31,975 nt of DNA from a virus (lineage: Duplodnaviria; Caudoviricetes): IMG/VR virus record IMGVR_UViG_3300016484_000087, positions 1 through 31,975 of that record, one strand, 5' to 3'. Positions 6,210 to 29,317 of this stretch are shown here, piece by piece. Made by a program: the position numbers and the translations under genes. A model generated the notes under the pieces. It worked only from the letters and a program-made list of their open reading frames with translations, was not told where the DNA came from and did no database searches. The first letter of the stretch is position 1, and each line of letters opens with the position of its first letter.

Positions 6210-6617
6210 ATGGCAAACAAACACCGCAATATCGACAAGGATGAATTGCTTCAAATGGCTTATAATTATTGCGACTATTGTATTGAGTCAACGAAGGAAA
6301 TCGCGACGAATTCAGGAGTGAAGCAAGTCAGGGAACGACACATTCCTACCGTGTCTTATTTCCTTCTTCATTGGCTTCGTCGCAACCACTTTGACTTTTA
6401 TTCCCGAACGAACTGGTACGACGCAATGAAGGACGAAACACATCCATTGTCGAACACTATAAAAACAATCGACAACGACTTCAACGCTTTGGCGCGTGAT
6501 ATCGTTGCCAACGAAGGCAAGGGAATCTTCTACGCAAAGAATAAGCTTGGCATGCACGACCGTCAACAAGTGGAAACAAGAAACGTGGAACGCTTCGATT
6601 TCGATGTCAACGATTAA
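6210..6617 (+). CDS. Terminase small subunit
   Basis: Immediately upstream of and overlapping terL. PTVSYF...GIFYAKNKLGMHDRQQVE resembles DNA-packaging small subunits. Confidence 0.65.
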   Translation: MANKHRNIDKDELLQMAYNYCDYCIESTKEIATNSGVKQVRERHIPTVSYFLLHWLRRNHFDFYSRTNWYDAMKDETHPLSNTIKTIDNDFNALARDIVANEGKGIFYAKNKLGMHDRQQVETRNVERFDFDVND

Positions 6618-7806
6618 AGGGTATCGACCGCACAAACACCAGCTTGAAATTCATCAAGCAATCAACCAAGGCAAAGAAAAGTATTTCGCTTTGAACATTG
6701 GTCGCCAGTTCGGAAAGACCATGCTTGGAATCAACCAACTACTTTGGTGGGCAATCAACGACCGCGGTTGCACGATTGCTTGGGTTACACCAGTGTACAA
6801 ACAAGGAAAGAAGGTCTTCGCTGAACTTGAACGCGCCGTGGCGAAATCTGGATTGTTTGAATTCAACAAATCCGATTTGAGAATCACGGGGTTCGGTTCG
6901 TCCATTGAATTCTTTTCAGGCGAACGACCTGACAACATTCGTGGAAATACATTCGATTACATGGTCGTGGATGAATTCGCGTTCACACGTCCTGAATTGT
7001 GGGACGAAGTGTTGTCGGCGACGGTGCTGGTTAAAGGAAAGAAGGTCATCTTCATTTCAACACCGAAGGGAAAGAATCACTTTCATCGTGTGTGCTTACA
7101 ACAAAATTACGACGACCGTTATCGGTATTTCCATTTCACGTCGTTCGACAATCCTATGATTGATCCGAAGGAACTTGAAGAACGAAAGCGGTCATTGCCT
7201 GACCATGTGTTCCGTCAAGAATACCTTGCGGAATTCCTTGACAACGCTGGTGGTTTGTTCAAGGGTGTGTCGTCGTGTATCGGTCAAGGTGAACGCACGT
7301 CACGAATGTACGGCGGTCTTGACATCGGACGCGCTGACGACTACACGGTGTTGACTATCCTGAACGAACACGGTCACATGGTTCACGTTGAAAGGTGGCG
7401 ACACGACGACTGGTCACGAATCATTGACAAGGTCGCTGGATTGATTCGCCAGTTCAACGCAATCACTACTGTCGAAGTCAACAACCAAGGTGACGTCTTC
7501 TTCGAAATGCTTCACAACACGTTGCGCAACAAGGTCGTTCCATTCGTCACCACGTCGAAGTCAAAGCCAGTGTTGATTGAAGACCTTGCGTTGTCGTTCG
7601 AACAACAAGCGATTCGTGTGAACGATGTCAAATGGTTGCTTGACGAATTGGATTCATTTACCTATATTTACAATCCGAAAACAAGGGGGGTTCAATATAG
7701 CGCACCGACTGGACTACACGACGACGGTGTCATGTCATTGGCGCTTGCGTGGAATTCCTTGAAGAACAACAAGTCAAAAGGGAAATACAATACATTGAGA
7801 ATATGA
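6604..7806 (+). CDS. terL: Terminase large subunit
   Basis: Walker A GRQFGKT, Walker B MVVDEFAF, ISTPKG, and nuclease motifs GLDIG and HDDGVMSLALA. Start placed at ATG 6604. Confidence 0.95.
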   Translation: MSTIKGYRPHKHQLEIHQAINQGKEKYFALNIGRQFGKTMLGINQLLWWAINDRGCTIAWVTPVYKQGKKVFAELERAVAKSGLFEFNKSDLRITGFGSSIEFFSGERPDNIRGNTFDYMVVDEFAFTRPELWDEVLSATVLVKGKKVIFISTPKGKNHFHRVCLQQNYDDRYRYFHFTSFDNPMIDPKELEERKRSLPDHVFRQEYLAEFLDNAGGLFKGVSSCIGQGERTSRMYGGLDIGRADDYTVLTILNEHGHMVHVERWRHDDWSRIIDKVAGLIRQFNAITTVEVNNQGDVFFEMLHNTLRNKVVPFVTTSKSKPVLIEDLALSFEQQAIRVNDVKWLLDELDSFTYIYNPKTRGVQYSAPTGLHDDGVMSLALAWNSLKNNKSKGKYNTLRI

Positions 7807-13439: not shown

Positions 13440-16035
13440 AGAAGCGGTTTTTAATGTAAAGGTAAACACTGGAAATTCAGTTCAAGACCTTCAAGAAACG
13501 GACAAAGCTGTCAATCAACTTGGTCAGGATTTGCAAAAAACGCAAACGACAGCGAAGGATACAACTGGAATGGACGCCTACGCGCAAAAGCTTGCGGAAC
13601 TTGACGCACGTCTTGACGCTGGTGGTTTGTCAATGCGTGAAATGACGCAATTGATGAAAGAATACCAGACGGTAGCGGTTCAAGCTGGAACGGAATCACC
13701 AATCGGTGCGCAAGCTATTCAAAGCGCTGGACAATTGAAGGATGAAATCGGTGACATCAAAGCGCAAACAACCGCGTTGTCATCCGACTTCGTTGGTCTT
13801 GACACGGCAATGGCTGGAATATCAACGGGGACGGCTGTGTTCCAAGGTATGCAATCCGCAATGGCGTTAACTGGTGGTGAAAACGAAGAACTTGTTCAAA
13901 CAATGGTCAAGCTTCAAGCGGTTCAAGGTGTGGTCAATGCGGTTTCAACCGTTGCGAATAACCTAAATAAAGAAGCGATTCTTGGAATTCAAATCCGAAA
14001 CGGATTGACCAAGATTCAAAACTGGTTGATGACTGGAACGGCTGGTGCAACTACATTGACGGCAACGGCTTCAGGTGGACTTGCAACGGCACAAGGCGCG
14101 GTTGCGGTTTCAACGAATGTGGCTTCAGGCGCGATGAAAGCTTTTCGTGGTGCTTTGCTTGCGACGGGTATCGGTGCGGTTGTTGTGTTGGTTGGTGCTT
14201 TGGTTGTTGCGTTCGAACAAATGGGTGACGAAGCTGAAAAGCAATCAGCTAAATTGAAAGCGCTTGAAGATAGTATTGAAAATCTTGGAAACGTTCAACA
14301 ATTCGAAGCGGACTTGTTGACAACATTAAACGAACGCGCCATTCTTGAAGCAAAACTTCGTGGTGCTTCGGACAATGAATTGTTGAAACTTGAAAAACAA
14401 AACACGAAAGCACGAATCGAACAACGCTGGAAACACTTGGACGAAGTCATCAAGACGAACAGCAAAATTGTCAACAATGAGAATTCAACATCCGAACAAT
14501 TAAAGAAGGCACAAGACAAAATTGCGTCGGCTCAAACGGAACAAAAGAATTTAACCTATTCAATACAAAACGAAAAATTAAAATTCCAGCTTCAAGACCA
14601 AGAAATCGCGAAGAAGCAAAATGAAGAAGCGGAAAAGAATCGTGAAAAAGCAAAACAAAACGCTGAAAAAAGAAAACAAGAACAACTTAAAATTCGTGAA
14701 GAATTACTTCGTGGACTTCAGGAATCAATCAATCGTGAAATGGAAATTCGCGAAGCGCTTGAAGACGTGAAAATAAAATTCATCAAGGACGAAACACAAC
14801 AAGCAATCGAATCGGTCAAGGAACAATACGGTGACTGGCGCGACCAGTTCATCAAGCAATCCGCGAAGAAAGAAATCGAAGCGCTTGACGAAAAGTTCAA
14901 GAAGGGAAAAATGTCCGAACAAGATTATCGAAACGAACTTCAAGCAATCATGACTGGCGCGGTTGATAAGATGACCACGTCCGAAAAAGAATTGATGACC
15001 GCGAAGAATCTTGAAATGCAAAACGACATCCAAAAGATTACGGACGAAGCGACAACAAGGGAACTTGAAAAACAAGCGGAAAAAGAAAAGAAAAAACTTG
15101 AATTGATTGACGCTTACAAACGATCCGTGAACGACGTTTATCAAAACGAATTGCTTGACTTTGAGAACGCGCAAAAGGAACAAATCAAAGCGTTGAATGA
15201 AGCACATCAACAACAGCTTATCACGGACGAAGAATATATGAAAGCGCAAGAAGCGCTTGAGAAACAATACGATGACAAGATTGTCGAATTGAATAAAAAG
15301 AAAAACGAAGCGATTGAGCAAGCGAATAAAAAGAAAAATGAAGAAGCGATGAAAGACATTCAAGCTGTACTTGACACGGCTGGAAAGTATTTCGATGAAA
15401 TTAAAAAGGTCAATGAATTATTGAACCAACTTGACCAAGTTCGTCTTGATAAAATCGCAAAGAATCGTGAAGACGACTTAACAAATCTGGACGCGAAAAT
15501 GCAAGCTGAATTAAGCGCTGAAGGATTGACCGCGGAACAAAAGAAAGCCATTGAAGAAAATTTCGCGAAACAAAAATATCAAGTTCAGCTTCAGGCGTAC
15601 AACGAAGAAGAAAAAATAAAGAAGGCGCAATTCAATCGTGACAAAGCGATTCGTATTGGTCAAATCGCAATGGATACCGCTGGCGCAATTGTTAAAGCGG
15701 TTAGCGCTTCACCATTAACATTCGGTTTACCTTGGTCGGCGTTCGCTGGTGCGCTTGGAATCGCGCAAGCTGGAATCGTTGCAAGTCAGCAATACAAGTC
15801 AGGGAAAGCGCCGACAATGCCGTCGTTGTCTGGTGGTGGTGGTGGTTCAGCAACTGGTGCAAGCGCGTCTTCATTCACGTCGTCGAATCAAGGAACTTTG
15901 ACCGCTGGATTGACTGGTGTTCAACAAGGCACGCCAACAACAACAACACCAGCGACACAAGTTTATGTTCTTGAAAGCGACATTTCAGCGACGCAAAACA
16001 AAGTTAAGCTTCAAGAATCCAAAACAAGTTTTTAA
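13429..16035 (+). CDS. Tail tape measure protein
   Basis: 868 aa with Ala/Gly-rich hydrophobic segments (ALLATGIGAVVVLVGALVVAF) and long K/E/Q coiled coils. Confidence 0.85.
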   Translation: MATKEAVFNVKVNTGNSVQDLQETDKAVNQLGQDLQKTQTTAKDTTGMDAYAQKLAELDARLDAGGLSMREMTQLMKEYQTVAVQAGTESPIGAQAIQSAGQLKDEIGDIKAQTTALSSDFVGLDTAMAGISTGTAVFQGMQSAMALTGGENEELVQTMVKLQAVQGVVNAVSTVANNLNKEAILGIQIRNGLTKIQNWLMTGTAGATTLTATASGGLATAQGAVAVSTNVASGAMKAFRGALLATGIGAVVVLVGALVVAFEQMGDEAEKQSAKLKALEDSIENLGNVQQFEADLLTTLNERAILEAKLRGASDNELLKLEKQNTKARIEQRWKHLDEVIKTNSKIVNNENSTSEQLKKAQDKIASAQTEQKNLTYSIQNEKLKFQLQDQEIAKKQNEEAEKNREKAKQNAEKRKQEQLKIREELLRGLQESINREMEIREALEDVKIKFIKDETQQAIESVKEQYGDWRDQFIKQSAKKEIEALDEKFKKGKMSEQDYRNELQAIMTGAVDKMTTSEKELMTAKNLEMQNDIQKITDEATTRELEKQAEKEKKKLELIDAYKRSVNDVYQNELLDFENAQKEQIKALNEAHQQQLITDEEYMKAQEALEKQYDDKIVELNKKKNEAIEQANKKKNEEAMKDIQAVLDTAGKYFDEIKKVNELLNQLDQVRLDKIAKNREDDLTNLDAKMQAELSAEGLTAEQKKAIEENFAKQKYQVQLQAYNEEEKIKKAQFNRDKAIRIGQIAMDTAGAIVKAVSASPLTFGLPWSAFAGALGIAQAGIVASQQYKSGKAPTMPSLSGGGGGSATGASASSFTSSNQGTLTAGLTGVQQGTPTTTTPATQVYVLESDISATQNKVKLQESKTSF

Positions 16036-16666
16036 GCCACGAACGACCGCGCGTTGTCAGGAATGAATCGGACGTTGAGAAACAACCATACGTCCGAAGT
16101 AGTTCTTCGGCTTTGGGAATGTTGTCTTTTGCAAGCTTGACGTTCACACCTTTGCGAATGAATTCAGGTGAATTCATGTTCAGGTAAATTGACTTGATAA
16201 AATGGTTGTATCTTTTCCATTCAATCAGTTCAAAGATTTCAAGCAACTTGTCGGAATTCATCAACACTGGTGAATGTGTTTCGAAATTCCACAACGGACG
16301 TTCATAGTATTTCAAGAATTCCATTGTGTTGAACATCGCTTCACGGTAGTGTGACGGGTGTCGTGGATTCAATTCAAATTCACCTGAATGAATCGGAATG
16401 TCGGCGCGAAGTTTTGGCGTGATATAAAAGTCGTCGTTCATGTATATGAAATCACCACCACGTTCACGGGCAAAGGTCAACATTTTATTTGTCACGTCCG
16501 CGCCACGAATGTTGTTTAATTGCGGACAAGGAATGTTGTCAATGGTCGCGACCTTATCGCCAACGGTTACGATGTGCGCTTCAGGGAACGACATCCGAAT
16601 GAATCGGATTGATTGTTGAATGTCGAAGTCATCGCGACTTCTTCGATAAGGGAATACAAATGTCAT
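16004..16666 (-). CDS. Stealth-like / GT-A sugar(-phosphate) transferase
   Basis: DIQQSIRFI...HIVTVG and DFIYMNDDFY resemble Stealth CR2 (LRYSLRS...FIYxNDD). It is the only credible minus-strand gene. Confidence 0.6.
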   Translation of the reverse strand: MTFVFPYRRSRDDFDIQQSIRFIRMSFPEAHIVTVGDKVATIDNIPCPQLNNIRGADVTNKMLTFARERGGDFIYMNDDFYITPKLRADIPIHSGEFELNPRHPSHYREAMFNTMEFLKYYERPLWNFETHSPVLMNSDKLLEIFELIEWKRYNHFIKSIYLNMNSPEFIRKGVNVKLAKDNIPKAEELLRTYGCFSTSDSFLTTRGRSWLKNLFWILEA

Positions 16667-16686
16667 CGAACAAATTTACATATTAT
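16667..16686 (+). promoter_or_regulatory. Candidate phage late-promoter motif, copy 3
   Basis: CGAACAAATTTACATATTAT occupies most of the 26-bp gap before ATG 16693. Confidence 0.6.
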
Positions 16687-16692
16687 AATAAC

Positions 16693-17598
16693 ATGAGAAA
16701 AGAACTACCAGTTTACGAAATCATGATTGACCTTAACGATCCAGAAACGACCGTTTCGTTCAATTCATTGGTTGAATTTCCAGCGCACGAAAAGAACTTC
16801 GAAACATTCAACAAGCGTGTCAAGTACGAATTCAACGAAGAACAACAAGTCATCACGGGAATCGCGATTTCAGCGGACACACCGATATATCGATACGACG
16901 ACGAATCAAAAGAAGAATACTATGTTGTATTCACGAAGGACGCCATTCGCGACATCGTGCTTGATTACGCACGTCGGAATAATTTCAACAACGTCAACCT
17001 TGACCACAATCCGCACCGTGTTGTTGACGGCGTGTTCATGACAATGTCTTATCAAATCGACAATGAACGTGGCTTCACCGCACCTGAACGATTCAAGGAC
17101 GCGAACGACGGTTCATGGTTGGTTAGTTACAAAGTTACTGACAAGGCGTTGTTTGAAAAAGCAAAGAACGGTGAATTCAACGGCTTCAGTATTGAAGGTG
17201 TTTTCACTTTGCTTGAAACTGACAAGACCAAGGAAAGCGAATTCGAATCAATCTTGAAAGAAGTGGAATTGTGGCGACGCAACATCGAACGAATCCGAAT
17301 GTTCAATGACTATCCTGAAGCGGTATCGAACAACGCAAAACGTGGAATCGAATTGAATGAAAAGAACGGCAACAAATGCGCCACGCGTGTCGGTCGTTTA
17401 CGCGCGACCACCTTGTCGAACCGCGACACCGTTTCGTTGCAAGTGATAAAAAGAATGTATTCGTATTTGTCACGCGCTGAAGCTTATTACAACGAAAGCG
17501 ACACGTCCGCTTGTGGAACGATTTCATTCTTATTGTGGGGTGGTAAAGCTGGACTTCGTTGGTCGGAATCCAAGCTGAAGGAACTTGGTGAACTTTAA
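16693..17598 (+). CDS. XkdF-like prohead (capsid maturation) protease with an extra C-terminal domain
   Basis: SLVEFPA, ITGIAISADTPIYR, GSWLVSYKV and GEFNGFSIEG. Extra domain NDYPEAVSNNAKRG...VIKRMYSYLSR...LLWGG. Confidence 0.7.
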   Translation: MRKELPVYEIMIDLNDPETTVSFNSLVEFPAHEKNFETFNKRVKYEFNEEQQVITGIAISADTPIYRYDDESKEEYYVVFTKDAIRDIVLDYARRNNFNNVNLDHNPHRVVDGVFMTMSYQIDNERGFTAPERFKDANDGSWLVSYKVTDKALFEKAKNGEFNGFSIEGVFTLLETDKTKESEFESILKEVELWRRNIERIRMFNDYPEAVSNNAKRGIELNEKNGNKCATRVGRLRATTLSNRDTVSLQVIKRMYSYLSRAEAYYNESDTSACGTISFLLWGGKAGLRWSESKLKELGEL

Positions 17599-17602
17599 TT
17601 TT

Positions 17603-17622
17603 CGAACAAGATTACATATTAT
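17603..17622 (+). promoter_or_regulatory. Candidate phage late-promoter motif, copy 4
   Basis: CGAACAAGATTACATATTAT, starting 32 nt before the scaffold ATG 17635. Confidence 0.6.
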
Positions 17623-17634
17623 AAAAAACACAAA

Positions 17635-18237
17635 ATGAACGCATACGAAAAAGTAATGAACGAACTTGGAAAAATCAAATCCATGTTTGAAACAGCAACC
17701 GAAGAAACGGTTCAAACTACATTTGAAACGGCGACTTTATTAGACGGTGAAACGACCATTGAATTCGAAACACTTGAAGCTGGTCAACAAGTTTTCATCG
17801 TGACACCTGAAGGTCGTATTCCAGCACCTGAAGGAACGCACGCGCTTGGTGGCGATTACACTGGTGTGACAATCGTTGTTGACGCTGACGGATTCATCGT
17901 TGAAGTTATGGACGAAAGAGGAACTGAAGAAGCACCAGCGGAACAAGCACAAGCGGAACAAGCACCCGTTGAACAATCAATGTCCGCTGACGATGTTGAA
18001 GCAATCGTAAATGGAAAACTTGAAACGTTGACAACTACTTTCGAAGCGGTTGTTGAAACATTGAAAAGTATTTCCGAAGACAACGCGTCACTTCGAAATG
18101 AAATTGCTTCTTTGAAAGCTGACTTCGAAAGCTTCAAAGCAATGCCTTCGAATGAAACAAAAGAAGGTGAGAAATTCTCACGGGTTGGCAACCTTACAGC
18201 TAAACAACAATTTTTAAAACAATACAAAAACCTATAA
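17635..18237 (+). CDS. Putative capsid scaffolding protein
   Basis: Acidic with a C-terminal coiled coil and PAPEGTH, lying between the protease and major capsid genes. Confidence 0.6.
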   Translation: MNAYEKVMNELGKIKSMFETATEETVQTTFETATLLDGETTIEFETLEAGQQVFIVTPEGRIPAPEGTHALGGDYTGVTIVVDADGFIVEVMDERGTEEAPAEQAQAEQAPVEQSMSADDVEAIVNGKLETLTTTFEAVVETLKSISEDNASLRNEIASLKADFESFKAMPSNETKEGEKFSRVGNLTAKQQFLKQYKNL

Positions 18238-18241
18238 AATC

Positions 18242-19201
18242 ATGTCTATTAAAAAGTATGTAAAGTCGAATTTCGACTACGATGTATCTGGATTAGCGCC
18301 TTACGTTGATGACCAACGTGAAGACCTTATTCACCGTTCAGTAACTGAAGCACAAACGCTTTCTTATATTGCTGTACAACAAGGAATCAAAGGAACTGAA
18401 GACCTTAAATTGTTAAACGATTCAATCGTTTATCAAGCTGGTGATTGTTCCATGTCACCTTCAGGCGACACAATCTTTACTGACCGACAAATTTCCGTTG
18501 AAACAATCGGTTACTTGAAGAAGTTTTGTCAAAAAGATTTAGCTGGATTCTGGACACAATTAGCACTTCGTCCAGGTGCAATGGCTGAAGACAAGACGTT
18601 ACCATTCGAGCAAGTATTAATCAACTACTTATTAGAGTTACACGCGTTCGAATTAGAAAAATTAATCTGGCAAGGTAACAAAGTTTCAGGTTCAGGAAAC
18701 TTGGCGTTCATGAATGGATTCAACAGCTTCTTAACGGTAGCGAACGGATGTGTTGACTTGAACACTTCAGGTGCGACATCGATCGACGCAACCAACGCGT
18801 TTGACATTTTCTACGAAGCGTTTGTTAACACACCAGCAAACGTTGCTGAAGGTCAAGATTTCATTTGCTTCACTGGTCGTGAAAACTTCAACTACTTATT
18901 GAAGAACTTGGTTGACTTGAACATGTTCAACTACAATCCAGCGCAAATCGCAACCATGAATGAAATCCTTTTACCAGGAACAAACATGAGAATCGTGAAA
19001 GTAAACGGATTGAACGGAACTTCTAAAATCTACACTGGTCGCGCTTCACATTTCTACTTCGGAACTGACTTATCAAGCGACTTCGAATCTTACGATTTAT
19101 GGTATAGCTTCGACGACGATGTGATTTATTTACGTTCTAAATTCCGCGCTGGTGTTCAAGTACCATTCTTGAACCAAGTGGGAACATTCGAAGGAATCTA
19201 A
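18242..19201 (+). CDS. Major capsid protein
   Basis: 319 aa, positioned after protease/scaffold, with ELEKLIWQG...NGF and YFGTDLSSD. Followed by a stable hairpin. Confidence 0.8.
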   Translation: MSIKKYVKSNFDYDVSGLAPYVDDQREDLIHRSVTEAQTLSYIAVQQGIKGTEDLKLLNDSIVYQAGDCSMSPSGDTIFTDRQISVETIGYLKKFCQKDLAGFWTQLALRPGAMAEDKTLPFEQVLINYLLELHAFELEKLIWQGNKVSGSGNLAFMNGFNSFLTVANGCVDLNTSGATSIDATNAFDIFYEAFVNTPANVAEGQDFICFTGRENFNYLLKNLVDLNMFNYNPAQIATMNEILLPGTNMRIVKVNGLNGTSKIYTGRASHFYFGTDLSSDFESYDLWYSFDDDVIYLRSKFRAGVQVPFLNQVGTFEGI

Positions 19202-19203
19202 TA

Positions 19204-19240
19204 AACAAAATTAACGGCGCGTTTCGGCGCGCCATTTGTT
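19204..19240 (+). terminator. UUCG-capped hairpin after the capsid gene (weak terminator or mRNA stabiliser)
   Basis: GGCGCGT-TTCG-GCGCGCC (19216-19233), flanked by AACAAA/TTTGTT, with only a poor U-tract. Confidence 0.6.
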
Positions 19241-19263
19241 AAACTTAAAAAAATAAAAAAACC

Positions 19264-19797
19264 ATGTCTTGTTTAATGACAACGGGGTACAACGACAGAA
19301 CATGTACCAACGGAAAAGGTGGAATCAAAAGCGTGTTGTTGTTTCCTTTGGGTGCGACTTCAGGCGCGGTTGTTTCCGCTTCAAACGAATTGACTTCTTT
19401 GACCGTAACTGGTGAAACATTCCTTTACAAATTAAAGTCAAATTTATCAAGCTACACCGCACCGATTCGCGTTGACAAAAACAACGGTACTTTGTGGTAT
19501 GAACACGAATTGTCAATGATCTTGGCAAGTGATTCAAAAGAATTGCGCGCTGAAATTCACTTACTTGCACAAAACGAATGTGTTTGTTTGGTTGAAAACG
19601 CTGACGGTTCAATCGTTGCGCTTGGTCTTGGCGAAGGTCTTCAGGTTGCGGACGCTAACGAATACACTTCAGGCGTTTTAAAAAGCGACCGAAAAGGACA
19701 CGTTATTGTTCTTCGTGGAATGGAAAACGACGAAGTTCCTGACGTTAACGCAACGCTTTACAACAACTTGTTATTACAACAATCACCAGTTATTTAA
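19264..19797 (+). CDS. Major tail (tube) protein
   Basis: MSC...C.NGKGGIKSV, NGTLWYEHELSM and LVENADG...LGLGEGL, a pattern seen in Bacteroidota siphophage tube proteins. Confidence 0.65.
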   Translation: MSCLMTTGYNDRTCTNGKGGIKSVLLFPLGATSGAVVSASNELTSLTVTGETFLYKLKSNLSSYTAPIRVDKNNGTLWYEHELSMILASDSKELRAEIHLLAQNECVCLVENADGSIVALGLGEGLQVADANEYTSGVLKSDRKGHVIVLRGMENDEVPDVNATLYNNLLLQQSPVI

Positions 19798-19816
19798 TTA
19801 TAACATACACAATTTT

Positions 19817-19849
19817 AAGGGGATGGGCGTTGTCCCGTCCCTTTTTTTT
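19817..19849 (+). terminator. Rho-independent terminator
   Basis: GGGATGGG-CGTTGT-CCCGTCCC followed by T8. Confidence 0.85.
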
Positions 19850-19864
19850 GTTTAATTTAGTCGT

Positions 19865-20107
19865 ATGGAAATTAAAAAAGAATTTATCGGTTGCAAATGT
19901 TGGTCGCCAACTATGGAACGATACGTCAAAATTGAAGCGGACAAAGGTGATTTATATTTGTCACTTGGAATCCTTGACATTTACGAATTTGAGAAACCGA
20001 ACCTTGTAAAAAAAGACAATGTTAAAAATACAAAAAAACGGAACAACACCGCTGGTGGTAACGGTGACGGAAATGACAACAATTCCGAATCCGAATTACT
20101 TGTTTGA
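19865..20107 (+). CDS. Hypothetical protein
   Basis: 80-aa ORF whose C-terminus overlaps the next gene. Confidence 0.5.
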   Translation: MEIKKEFIGCKCWSPTMERYVKIEADKGDLYLSLGILDIYEFEKPNLVKKDNVKNTKKRNNTAGGNGDGNDNNSESELLV

Positions 20108-20387
20108 GTTCATTCATGAACAATCGTTTAACACACAAACGTGTGTCTTGACGAACATTTCACAAGGCGTTCCGCGTTACGATGAATTTGTCTTGGTCGA
20201 CGGCGTTGACGTGACCTTCATTTACGACGGCTTTTATATTTACAACATTTACCAACAATCTTCACCAGCGAATCTTGATCCAGCGCAATCACAAGGACTT
20301 GTCGAAACGGGACGCGCGCATGTGATTGAAGCGGATTCACCGTCTTACGAATACGATTCACCGATTTATTTCAATATATATGAATAA
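20019..20387 (+). CDS. Hypothetical virion-associated protein
   Basis: 122-aa ORF directly upstream of and overlapping the portal gene. Confidence 0.6.
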   Translation: MLKIQKNGTTPLVVTVTEMTTIPNPNYLFEFIHEQSFNTQTCVLTNISQGVPRYDEFVLVDGVDVTFIYDGFYIYNIYQQSSPANLDPAQSQGLVETGRAHVIEADSPSYEYDSPIYFNIYE

Positions 20388-21912
20388 CAAGCTTACGTCC
20401 TTATCATTTCGCAAGGACTTTCAAAAACCTGAAGAAGAAAAAGACCGTTCACTTGGCTTCACGAAGTGGGGAAAAAAGAACGATTATCCTTTTTTCTTGG
20501 TTGATCTTTACAATGGTTCAGCTTATCACCAAGGAATAATAAAGAACAAAACATTCTACATTGCTGGTGGTGGTCTTCAAATCGTTTCTGGAATGGTTCA
20601 ACCATTCATCGACAACAAATGGTCGGACTTCGACATGAACGAAATCGCTGAACGAATGGCGTTCGATCAAGAATTGTTCGGTGGCTTCGCGGTCAAAGGA
20701 ACGTGGAATAAGGAACAAACGAAGGTTGTCATGTGGGAACACATTCCGCTTGACATGATTCGCGCGTCGGTTGATGAAAGAACTTACTATATTTCGGACG
20801 ACTGGACAGCGTTGAATCAATCGCCTGAAAAAACGAATCTTCGAATCTTACCAGCTTACGACAAGGACAATCGAACTGGTTCGTTCATTTTATATTACAA
20901 AGAACCACACCTGAAAGGTAAAAAAGAACTTGGCGTTTATCCGAAGCCGTCTTATTACGGTGGAATCACGGCTATTCAAACGGACGTTGACATTTCGAAA
21001 TTCCACATGTATGAATTGCAAAACGGATTCAAGTCGGGTACATTGATAAACTTTCCTTCAGGTTATCCAGAAACAACCGAAGAATTGAATCGATTGAAGG
21101 ACAATGTCAAAGGACGTTCACAATCGGTTGAAGACGCTGGCGAAATCATTTTGACATTCAGCAACGGCAAGGACGAAGCGCCTGAAGTGTTGTCATTGAA
21201 CGGCAACAACCTTGACCAGCGATATTTGGCGACTGAAAAAAGCGTTCAACAAAACATTCTTGTGGCGCATGCAATCACTTCACCACAATTGTTCGGTGTG
21301 AAGGTTGACGGTTCGTTCAATTCAGCGGAATCGGACGACTTGTTCAACATTTTCAAAGCGACTTATGTGAACACGAAGCAAAGACGAATCGAATGGATGT
21401 TGAATTTAATGCTTGAACTTGGTGGGTACGTTGGCGAAGTGAAGCTTCGTGACGTTGATCCATTACCGAAGGACGCACCAGCTACACAAGCACCAACAAC
21501 CGAAGGACAACCAACAACCGAAACGGTTGACGTTGCGAAAAGCGCGTTGAATGGCGCACAAATCGCGTCGTTGATTGACGTGGTTGCAAAGATAAAAGAA
21601 GGAATCTTGACGCCGAATTCAGCGCTTTCAATCTTGTTAGCTTCATTCCCTACCATTGACGAAGCAACAGCGAAACGAATTGTCGGATTGCCAGCGAACA
21701 CGATTCCCGTGGTTCAATCATGTGACAAGCACACGTTCAGCGACGATGAAATAAAAGTGTTCAGCGAATTCGGTGAATCAAATGAAGATTACATTGTTCT
21801 AGGAAACGTTCCGATTGAATGGAATACACCAGACGAAGAAGTCAAGAAACGACATCAACAACTTTTCGAAACGATTGGCACAATAACTGGAACGACGACG
21901 GGGGGAAAGTAG
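20380..21912 (+). CDS. Portal protein (510 aa, zero-frame product)
   Basis: WGKKNDYP...SAYHQGII, YPKPSYYGG, NGFKSGTLI and ILVAHAITSPQLFG. Start placed at ATG 20380. Confidence 0.85.
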   Translation: MNNKLTSLSFRKDFQKPEEEKDRSLGFTKWGKKNDYPFFLVDLYNGSAYHQGIIKNKTFYIAGGGLQIVSGMVQPFIDNKWSDFDMNEIAERMAFDQELFGGFAVKGTWNKEQTKVVMWEHIPLDMIRASVDERTYYISDDWTALNQSPEKTNLRILPAYDKDNRTGSFILYYKEPHLKGKKELGVYPKPSYYGGITAIQTDVDISKFHMYELQNGFKSGTLINFPSGYPETTEELNRLKDNVKGRSQSVEDAGEIILTFSNGKDEAPEVLSLNGNNLDQRYLATEKSVQQNILVAHAITSPQLFGVKVDGSFNSAESDDLFNIFKATYVNTKQRRIEWMLNLMLELGGYVGEVKLRDVDPLPKDAPATQAPTTEGQPTTETVDVAKSALNGAQIASLIDVVAKIKEGILTPNSALSILLASFPTIDEATAKRIVGLPANTIPVVQSCDKHTFSDDEIKVFSEFGESNEDYIVLGNVPIEWNTPDEEVKKRHQQLFETIGTITGTTTGGK

Positions 21913-21931
21913 ACGGGGGTGGCGAACCCCC
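21903..21931 (+). promoter_or_regulatory. Candidate programmed -1 ribosomal frameshift signal
   Basis: G_GGA_AAG (21903-21909) in the portal frame, TAG at 21910-21912, and hairpin GGGGGT-GGCGA-ACCCCC (21915-21931) 5 nt after the heptamer. Confidence 0.75.
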
Positions 21932-22946
21932 AGCTTTTGAAATTCGCTATTCTTATCGGACGCGACCAAACGTTCCCGAACCGATTACGCAATCACGCGC
22001 GTTTTGTGAAAAATTGCTTGAATTGAATCGGACGTATACGCGTCAAGATATTGACAACATTTCCGAACGTGTGGATCGTGACGTGTGGAAATATCGAGGT
22101 GGTTGGTATACGAATCCTGAAACACATGTGACAACACCTTATTGTCGTCACGAATGGGTGCAACAAATCGCAATCAAACGACCAGCTGTTGACACAACAC
22201 AACCTGAAGAACCATTGATTCAAGTCGGAACGGTTACAATTAAGACAATCGCCGAAGGAAAAGAACTTGCGAAACAAATCATTGAAGAAACATTCGGAAC
22301 GAAAGCGAAGATTGAAGTGAGTTCAAAAATATCAAAGGAAAGTTTTGAAAAACGATTGAATCAATTCAAGAACTTAACTGAAGAATATCAAGTCGGAAAT
22401 GAATTTGAAGGTGAAATTAAATTCATGTTCGAATCAAAAGGAAACACATATGGTCGCGTTGTTCAATACGGTAAACAAACAATTCAAGGAACAAAATTCA
22501 AAATAAGAGAAATCAATCTTGGACATGAGAATTCACCAGATACAATAAAAGGTGATCGATATTCCATTGATGAATTTGGTCGTGTTCGTGAATCATGGTC
22601 ACCGAAGATTGACGCTGAAAATTATGAACTTGGAACATTGACACACGAATTTGCGCATGTAATTACGAATAGCAAAGTGTCTCGTTTATATAGCAACGAC
22701 GCAAATCAAAAAGCGTTTTGGAATAATTTGAAACAAGTTCGCGCGGAATACAATAAGGATTTGACAACACTACGTCAAAAGAATGACATTGAAGAACTAA
22801 ACAAAGTTTTTTTAGGACAGTATTCAGCGACAAACATTGATGAATTCCTTGCCGAAGGATTTACGGAATATAAATTGAATTCAAATCCTTCGAAATACGC
22901 GAAGAAAATTGGTGAATTAGTAGACACACATTTTAAGAAAAAATAA
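21909..22946 (+). CDS. -1 frame portal extension: MuF-like Cys/His domain plus HExxH zinc metalloprotease (lethal-factor-like) toxin domain
   Basis: SRAFCEKL...WKYRGGWY...PYCRHEW, then THEFAH (H at 22644) and YSATNIDEFLAEGF. No plausible independent start: after ATG 21819 the next in-frame Met is ~600 nt downstream. Confidence 0.7.
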   Translation, partial: VDGGGEPPAFEIRYSYRTRPNVPEPITQSRAFCEKLLELNRTYTRQDIDNISERVDRDVWKYRGGWYTNPETHVTTPYCRHEWVQQIAIKRPAVDTTQPEEPLIQVGTVTIKTIAEGKELAKQIIEETFGTKAKIEVSSKISKESFEKRLNQFKNLTEEYQVGNEFEGEIKFMFESKGNTYGRVVQYGKQTIQGTKFKIREINLGHENSPDTIKGDRYSIDEFGRVRESWSPKIDAENYELGTLTHEFAHVITNSKVSRLYSNDANQKAFWNNLKQVRAEYNKDLTTLRQKNDIEELNKVFLGQYSATNIDEFLAEGFTEYKLNSNPSKYAKKIGELVDTHFKKK

Positions 22947-22947
22947 T

Positions 22948-23148
22948 ATGAGTAAAAATTTAGACGCGATTTGTTTTTCATGCGTACACTTTGACGCAAT
23001 TCTTGGATGTCCAGCTTTTCCAGACGATATTCCTGAAGAGATTTTGCTTGGTGAAAATGACCATTCACAAATAATAAAAGGTCAAGTCGGAAAATTTATT
23101 TTTGAACCTATAAAAGAACAAACAAATGAACTACCTATTGAGCGTTGA
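22948..23148 (+). CDS. Small Cys/His-rich protein, putative immunity/partner of the upstream protease
   Basis: CFSCVHF...CPAFPDDIPEEILLGENDH, beginning 1 nt after the toxin-domain stop. Confidence 0.6.
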   Translation: MSKNLDAICFSCVHFDAILGCPAFPDDIPEEILLGENDHSQIIKGQVGKFIFEPIKEQTNELPIER

Positions 23149-23644
23149 AAACCTAAAAAAATTAGGTCTTATTCACCAAAACACCGACACGAAGATTCTC
23201 GCCGTTTCAATTCGTCGAAGTCAAGACATTAACATTCAACCAGCGCTCGGAACACCGCTTTACAAGGCGTTGTTGCAACGCGTTCAAACGAATACATGGA
23301 CACCGACTTATTTGACGTTAATGAATGATTACGTTGTGCCGTGTTTGGTTGCCTATGTTGACTACCGTTGTGCGTTACTATTGAATGAAAAGCTGACAAA
23401 CAAATCGGTCGGACGTGTGAACGACGAACACATTCAAGCAAACGACGACAAGATGACCTTTGTTCTTCGTGACCAATTATTGAAAGACGCACAATTTTAC
23501 AAAGAACGTTTAATCGGTTTCCTAATGGACGACAACGGCGACAACTATCCTGAATACATTGATTGTTGTGGTTCGCCGTCCATGTGTCACGAAAAGGTTG
23601 ACAAAGATAAAACTGGTTATTCGCCTTTAAATTGGATTATATGA
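23126..23644 (+). CDS. Putative head-tail adaptor
   Basis: SQDINIQPALGTPLY...YVVPCLV...AQFYKERLIGFL...YPEY; helical protein downstream of the portal. Confidence 0.55.
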   Translation: MNYLLSVENLKKLGLIHQNTDTKILAVSIRRSQDINIQPALGTPLYKALLQRVQTNTWTPTYLTLMNDYVVPCLVAYVDYRCALLLNEKLTNKSVGRVNDEHIQANDDKMTFVLRDQLLKDAQFYKERLIGFLMDDNGDNYPEYIDCCGSPSMCHEKVDKDKTGYSPLNWII

Positions 23645-29141: not shown

Positions 29142-29317
29142 GCGTTACAACGCGACAAAGTTACAATTCCTTTTATATACCGCCGTGAAAAAAAAAGCGG
29201 TATTTTTAAGGGGGGGGGTAAAAACTTTTGTAATTTTGTCGCGCTTTGTGTCAAACGTAGTGTGGTATTGATTTATAGGCGTTACAAAATGCGTTACAAA
29301 AAATTATTTTTGTCGCG
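29142..29317. repeat. Putative replication origin: direct and inverted repeats
   Basis: GCGTTACAA at 29142, 29279 and 29291. 16-bp inverted repeat CGCGACAAAGTTACAA (29151-29166) / TTGTAATTTTGTCGCG (29228-29243). A further TTTGTCGCG near 29309, plus A9 and G9 runs. Confidence 0.6.

Follow-up and report, generated by a model that had tools for sequence, protein, structure and literature searches.

In phages T7 and T3 (gp10A/10B), Lactobacillus phage A2, the Listeria phages A118 and A500 and phage lambda (gpG/gpGT), a slippery heptamer is located at the end of a structural gene, and the −1 extensions give a short form and a long form at a set ratio, according to the accessible part of a review of recoding (PMC5009743). 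In this study, a similar heptamer was investigated at the 3′ end of the portal gene of the virus record IMGVR_UViG_3300016484_000087, whose positions 1 to 31,975 constitute the window (the whole stretch of 31,975 nucleotides analyzed). Different from the genes above, the gene in this window encodes a portal protein, and its predicted extension is an enzyme with a partner rather than an Ig-like or chaperone domain. The word "portal" does not occur in the 300,000 of the 449,034 characters of the review that were covered.

The locus also resembles those of the MuF polymorphic toxins, which, as described in the accessible parts of the sources (PMC5576092; PMC3482391) and as found for gp028/gp029 of vB_FspM_lotta8-1, consist of a head-associated carrier at the portal locus with a variable C-terminal tip and a small downstream gene. 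Metallopeptidases account for 20% of the MuF toxin tips, and the word "frameshift" does not occur in the same paper (Jamet et al. 2017, PMC5576092). Different from the MuF toxins, the carrier here is a portal followed by a Cys/His domain without a Pfam MuF match, the tip appears to be reached by recoding, and no lysogeny genes were found among the 41 open reading frames (ORFs) scanned. Portals covalently joined to accessory or effector domains have been described as well, including the portal-MuF fusions of Microbacterium phage clusters EA3/EA5/EA8/EB (PMC7302621) and the PBECR and 2H domains fused to portal/MuF (PMC5512222). Unlike the locus studied here, they are plain fusions, and the accessible parts of these papers mention no frameshift between the fused parts. 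P0234 and P0245, which are single-ORF DUF935 portal-MuF-peptidases of 945–957 amino acids (aa), are further fusions of this kind and might hide a slip site. MuF-like genes are mentioned among the plausible false positives of PRFect in the part of that paper that was accessible. No paper on a portal frameshift was found in full-text literature searches, which covered few subscription papers. Compared with the systems above, the locus contributes a cargo of peptidase and partner, a single heptamer with two polarities that have separate stems, and an origin that can be traced.

The portal gene and its 3′ junction

The features of the locus are listed below by window position.

20380..21912, + strand: portal gene of 510 aa, starting at ATG 20380 and ending Gly-Lys-stop; PHROG portal matches with E values of 1.9e-29 and 1.4e-17
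21903..21909, + strand: slippery heptamer G_GGA_AAG, read in the portal frame; without any change in 12 of 12 aligned junctions
21910..21912, + strand: 0-frame stop right after the heptamer; TAG here, TAA in a second clade
21915..21931, + strand: predicted stimulatory hairpin, 5 nucleotides (nt) past the heptamer; based on folding and conserved pairing
21909..22946, + strand: −1 frame of 345 codons without a conserved start; open at 21909–22943, stop at 22944–46
21936..22184, + strand: Cys/His domain (SRxFC...GG...CRHxW); 737 clusters at 50% identity; predicted local distance difference test score (pLDDT) of the model 92.5
22239..22943, + strand: predicted zincin metallopeptidase domain; HEFAH at 22644–22658 and downstream Glu residues
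22948..23148, + strand: 66-aa Cys-rich partner (CxxC...CxAF...H), candidate immunity protein or inhibitor; paired with the peptidase, 47% identical to lotta8-1 gp029

Among the 47 listed genes, the portal gene alone has a heptamer of the X_XXY_YYZ form directly before its stop codon. By itself GGGAAAG, the lambda G-T slippery site, is not rare in the genome (3 found versus 2.3 expected). A second in-frame G_GGA_AAG is found in the large terminase gene (7068–7074) with a weak 3′ structure (−8.0 kcal/mol) and is probably due to chance. In the hairpin, GGGGGT (21915–21920) pairs with ACCCCC (21926–21931) at −12.7 kcal/mol (z of −1.9 taken alone), and the sole C5 run of the genome sits in this stem.

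The initial annotation had predicted a −1 frameshift from the portal into an ~855-aa fusion, with a conspicuous C-run hairpin. The coordinates of the heptamer, stop, hairpin, −1 frame and small ORF were all correct on re-check, and the comparative evidence below (a conserved heptamer, stop and hairpin, and a −1 frame without its own start) strongly supports the frameshift and the fusion.

Conservation of the stop-type junctions

In total, 20 distinct stop-type junctions (type C) were identified, some of which came from pattern searches. They all possess G_GGA_AAG, a stop codon and a hairpin, and their portals are ~58–100% identical to that of the window. These junctions form 7 clusters at 90% identity and 5 at 80%, and fall in two well-separated portal clades. 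In the second clade, the codon before GGA AAG is TCG or AAG, the stop codon is TAA, and there is no counterpart of the run of six G's (G6) that overlaps the heptamer in the window (21900–21905). GGGAAAG and a spacing of 33 nt to the Cys/His domain are nevertheless retained in this clade; thus, the signal is not a homopolymer effect. In addition to the invariant heptamer, the aligned portal 3′ ends kept the stop codon. As a control, none of the 16 four-fold columns with an invariant residue in 8 stop-type lineages had an invariant codon. The in-frame heptamer is therefore conserved beyond what the protein needs. G_GGA_AAG is listed as highly shift-prone in Escherichia coli in the accessible part of the review (PMC5009743).

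The five core pairs of the hairpin were formed in 59 of 60 cells of the 12 aligned junctions, of which two pairs had changed on both sides (G-C to C-G; A-U/G-C/U-A). The covariation of 0.169 was matched by 17 of 500 shuffles, and slid controls were much lower. The hairpin thus appears to be conserved by pairing, with modest support from the shuffles. Moreover, 16 of the 20 distinct junctions have no −1 frame start codon before the Cys/His domain. In 18 distinct junctions, codons 10–21 of the −1 frame precede all internal starts, and they varied there by 18 synonymous and 4 amino-acid variants; the first strand of the confident Cys/His domain model falls within these codons. For codons 15–21, which the search pattern did not fix, the numbers were 16 and 3. 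The −1 frame is thus a conserved ORF without a start of its own, and ribosomes very probably slip by −1 at the heptamer. DNA-pattern scans returned mostly chance matches outside the portal family and no new tip type.

Three other explanations of the frame offset were weighed against ribosomal slippage. That the offset reflects an assembly error or a decayed in-frame fusion has a negligible probability. Relatives do have in-frame fusions, and the portal of L013 has a premature TAA (codon ~391) where the near-identical L011 has CAA, which is either a sequence error or a nonsense allele. However, the 20 distinct junctions share one frame offset, the catalytic residues are intact in 42 sequences and variation is biased to synonymous changes. 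The G6 site was covered by assembled contigs, rather than raw reads, of five runs: X1 and X2, which are possible sources of the record, X3, which is from the same study as X1, and X6 and X18, which represent diverged strains. No indel at G6 was found among the entries listed for these contigs. A miscalled G7 that would make a simple in-frame fusion, which the initial annotation had named as a possible refutation, was also rejected, as many relatives without G6 still have the heptamer and the stop. At the level of assembled sequence, the frame change is thus confirmed not to be an assembly error. Transcriptional slippage, or another kind of recoding at the same place, could draw on the G6 run of this phage, but the second clade without G6 keeps the heptamer and a 3′ hairpin at ribosomal spacing, and bacterial slippage is described on runs of ~9 A or T in the accessible part of the review (PMC5009743); this explanation is highly improbable. 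Hardly more probable is that the −1 ORF is translated alone, starting at ATG 21819 or at a GTG or TTG inside it, and gives a minor head protein of its own. This phage does have the in-frame ATG, databases list ~35 clusters of free-standing 230–345-aa proteins, and starts are hard to judge with Shine-Dalgarno (SD) motifs upstream of only 2 of 47 genes. The equivalent of ATG 21819, whose use the initial annotation had also considered, is however present in only 4 of the 20 distinct junctions, one of them identical to that of this phage, while the internal starts are scattered over codons 22–108 and would cut into the domain, and codons 10–21 are under selection.

In-frame tails and a likely inverted polarity

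Of the 80 closest portals, 72 are read in frame via a winged helix, which matches Pfam helix-turn-helix families, into the Cys/His domain (type A); 70 of them stop after this domain, and the other 2 run off the end of their contigs. Five others are of type C, with heptamer, stop, hairpin and −1 tail, and three carry the tail in frame (type B), one of which is cut short. Neither the winged helix nor the Cys/His domain, which most relatives have in frame, is part of the 510-aa portal of this phage. Protein searches identified 35 tail-type loci, including 20 of type C, 14 of type B and 1 without a visible junction. GGGAAAG was present at the junction in all 34 tail-bearing loci with a visible junction; this count is restricted to protein-search loci because the DNA-pattern scans select for the heptamer. 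The portal core of this phage is 96% identical to that of the type-A locus L004, and the core of the type-B locus L209 is 98% identical to that of the type-A locus L053. On the core tree the type labels interleave, with type C in two clades. As judged from these sequence relationships, types A, B and C are alleles.

The in-frame tail junctions observed are those of L070, L078, L208–L214, L248–L250, L255, L256, L356 and L046. All 8 distinct type-B junctions as well as L046 read GC CTG GGA AAG, and CTG is rare in type-B portal cores (0–5 of 23–34 Leu codons). A long stem, which differs from the type-C stem, starts 5–6 nt downstream (z between −1.3 and −6.0 for the 9 complete loci that were folded). 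This stem was paired in 62 of 64 cells and had two two-sided pairs, which were matched by 7 of 500 shuffles. A −1 shift in type B is predicted to end translation within 1–8 codons. The early stop was dropped as evidence, as the null probability for a stop within 8 codons was 0.71, and an SD-like motif ~13 nt upstream in the in-frame loci was not counted because these phages barely use SD motifs. Given that the early stop is expected by chance, that type B comprises only 4–6 independent clusters and that its synonymous divergence is lower (4 of 17 four-fold columns were invariant), the truncating reading is likely, not shown. It is likely that this sister lineage reaches the same mixture of long and short forms by the opposite polarity. 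The reversed polarity has a precedent in dnaX tau/gamma, in which, as proposed for this family, one site gives a long and a short form and the shift truncates or extends by lineage, according to the accessible part of the review (PMC5009743). Different from dnaX, the gene here encodes a structural protein of a phage, each polarity has its own 3′ stem, and the two are alleles among close relatives. The searches found no locus in which a second peptidase type follows a stop-type junction, although P0040 and P0041 look like one.

Possible origin of the slippery site

Type-A proteins have the same Gly-Lys at the end of the winged helix. Among type-A proteins with xGK, G_GGA_AAR was found in 9 of 10 clusters versus 1.7 expected from codon use, an enrichment that shared ancestry could inflate; in L004, for example, it is located 43 nt before the Cys/His domain. 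The Lys is missing from 10 of 20 type-A clusters, and the type-A loci had no stable 3′ stem (z of −1.2 to +1.7, 7 loci). The heptamer was hence dropped as an obligatory or family-wide feature, as it is absent from half of the tail-less clusters and no stable 3′ stem is found there. We infer that a latent or weak site was kept in types B and C after the winged helix had been lost, and that each type gained a stimulator of its own.

The Cys/His domain, the peptidase tip and the 66-aa partner

The Cys/His domain is at or near the C-terminus in 149 of the best 150 of its 737 clusters, and a similar motif ends the portal of Nonlabens phage P12024S (weak profile score). As it is usually C-terminal on portals, this domain is a normal appendage of the portal family. 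It is located directly downstream of the portal, as MuF is, and its ESM feature score was 0.94 to a cluster of which 41% have PF04233. For 56 members, however, Pfam MuF was not among the top 25 families, the hhalign probability versus MuF was 6.5% with only CRH/NCRC aligned, and BFVD matches to head-morphogenesis proteins were at weak E values of 1.5–3.3. No solved structure was matched by sequence or Foldseek. In BFVD, the fold was also found on XkdF-type proteins and on a HAD-like protein of other uncultured phages. The Cys/His domain is possibly a divergent MuF core (PF04233/PF06152).

Residues 111–345 of the −1 frame, which form the peptidase, are well modeled (pLDDT of 83–98 per block), and the model matches zincins of the lethal-factor, MtfA and PPEP types with middling Z scores of 8.6, 8.0 and 6.6. 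The HExxH motif and the Glu residues are invariant. By fold and motif, the tail is predicted to be a zincin metallopeptidase. Among 80 longer peptidase homologs, 68 contain PF04233 (MuF), 1 contains PF06152 and 11 have no Pfam entry. In the cultured Flavobacterium phage vB_FspM_lotta8-1, a MuF-peptidase gene whose tip is 34% identical to that of this phage is followed by a small gene. The small gene was present in all 26 distinct complete loci with this peptidase, and absent from 54 tail-less loci and from 2 loci with the second peptidase type (0 of 56 without this tip). None of its 106 homolog clusters has a Pfam entry. The 66-aa protein is likely an inhibitor of the peptidase. The tips vary: in addition to the second HExxH type, an ADP-ribosyltransferase was found (P0386, E 3e-10). 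P0386 consists of a winged helix, the Cys/His domain and the ADP-ribosyltransferase tip, all in frame, and represents a third tip type.

These results agree with the HExxH protease that the initial annotation placed in the −1 frame and show that the peptidase and small ORF form a MuF-tip module, lotta8-1 included. Its "MuF-like" label held for the position after the portal; profile comparisons with MuF were negative or weak and kinship in fold is only hinted at, and the domain turned out to be the family's usual in-frame portal C-terminus. Its terms "minority", "toxin", "immunity" and "carried into virion" are inferences.

Proposed mechanism and alternatives

In the proposed mechanism, translation would mostly end at 510 aa, and a share of the ribosomes would slip −1 to produce an ~855-aa portal-Cys/His-zinc-peptidase, which would join the ring in few copies as effector cargo. 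With a portal of 12 subunits, slipping at 5–20% would give one to two tailed subunits per portal; for comparison, gp7 of SPP1 is found at one to two copies in each capsid, according to the accessible part of PMC5576092. The tail could then be freed by cleavage, by either the peptidase itself or the head protease, and act on a host protein after infection, while the 66-aa partner would neutralise it in the producing cell. Most plausibly, the shift limits the number of subunits with a bulky or harmful tail. Mixed portal rings in virions are quite likely. The explanation as a whole, with a portal and an ~855-aa fusion made by a conserved slip signal, effector cargo and a 66-aa inhibitor, is reasonably probable, and the balance tips slightly toward a tail that is freed by proteolysis and acts on a protein of the host once infection has taken place, with neutralisation by the partner in the producing cell.

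Several observations weigh against this explanation. The hairpin is not unusual in its 51-nt (z of −0.5) or 96-nt (z of +0.4) context, its two two-sided pairs were matched in 154 of 500 shuffles and the outer pairs frequently fail to form (77% pairing across 8 pairs). Because the junctions share ancestry and are exchanged by recombination, they are less independent than the counts suggest. A tail fused to the portal would first have to be cut, at a putative cleavage site, before it could leave the head. Neither of the 2 loci with the second peptidase type has a partner gene. The predicted complex of the peptidase and the 66-aa protein scored 0.58 versus 0.22 for the best control and was rated weak; its runs agreed in at least 88% of contacts with a partner pLDDT of at least 72, and of 157 solved pairs 116 reached the mark for complexes, as did 2 of 215 mismatched pairs, both of which lay at or under 0.60. 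Finally, MuF toxins are reported on temperate phages in the accessible part of PMC5576092, and neither integrase nor repressor was found here among the 41 ORFs scanned, many of which had no match at all.

The target of the peptidase may be a host or a phage protein, and the main rival accepts the frameshift but takes the peptidase for an enzyme of morphogenesis or self-processing, or for one that works in the producing cell late in infection, with the small protein as cofactor or timer rather than as an immunity protein. Self-processing has been proposed for the zincin MPTases of phage polyvalent proteins (PMC5512222), and the occurrence of the Cys/His fold on XkdF-type proteins and the lack of lysogeny genes among the scanned ORFs would also fit. 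A morphogenesis enzyme is nevertheless unlikely, as the tail is dispensable (missing from 72 of the 80 closest portal relatives) and is swapped for another peptidase or an ADP-ribosyltransferase, and an extreme C-terminal tail with a dedicated downstream partner is the layout of polymorphic toxins.

Genome setting

The record is a near-complete virus record of ~32 kb with a completeness estimate of 98%, and two freshwater metagenome runs carry it in full. RNA-labelled runs were dropped as evidence of transcription because they consist of contigs, and runs with small shares were left out when habitat was judged. The genome encodes a terminase, an XkdF-type protease, the portal, an amidase and a BT4734-like/PriCT protein. 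The terminase genes (6210–7806) are ~12 kb upstream of the portal; the head genes (16609–23644) are ordered as protease, probable scaffold, probable capsid and portal, and a 220-aa gene at 16004–16666 is on the opposite strand. At 29189–29218, an AT-rich, probably non-coding stretch with an A run and a G9 run precedes a 795-aa primase-like gene and could be an origin or a regulatory region. The cultured relatives found are Bacteroidota phages only, namely Nonlabens P12024S/L (portal, 21%) and Flavobacterium lotta8 (peptidase, 37%), from which we infer a Bacteroidota, probably flavobacterial, host. A scan of GTDB genomes gave no host or prophage; among the matches listed were two distant peptidase fragments in Actinomadura.

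Implications

Tentatively, and short of being the favored view, phages would have exapted the slippery site from the wing of the portal-fused winged helix to set the dose of effectors carried in the virion; it would be kept in either polarity with its own RNA stimulator whenever a peptidase tail is attached, and a protease borne by only some portal subunits would be cut loose and injected with the DNA. If the frameshift explanation is true, the portal would join the phage genes under programmed recoding, and recoding would control how many copies of an effector a ring of fixed symmetry carries. Annotation pipelines would miss such a portal isoform: in ~35 database clusters the tail stands as a free protein. 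The two polarities of a single heptamer, which have separate stems and occur among portals ~60–70% identical, provide a natural experiment on the origin of frameshifting and on the efficiency that selection favors. Moreover, the locus offers a small, testable peptidase/inhibitor pair for the question of how MuF-type cargo functions.

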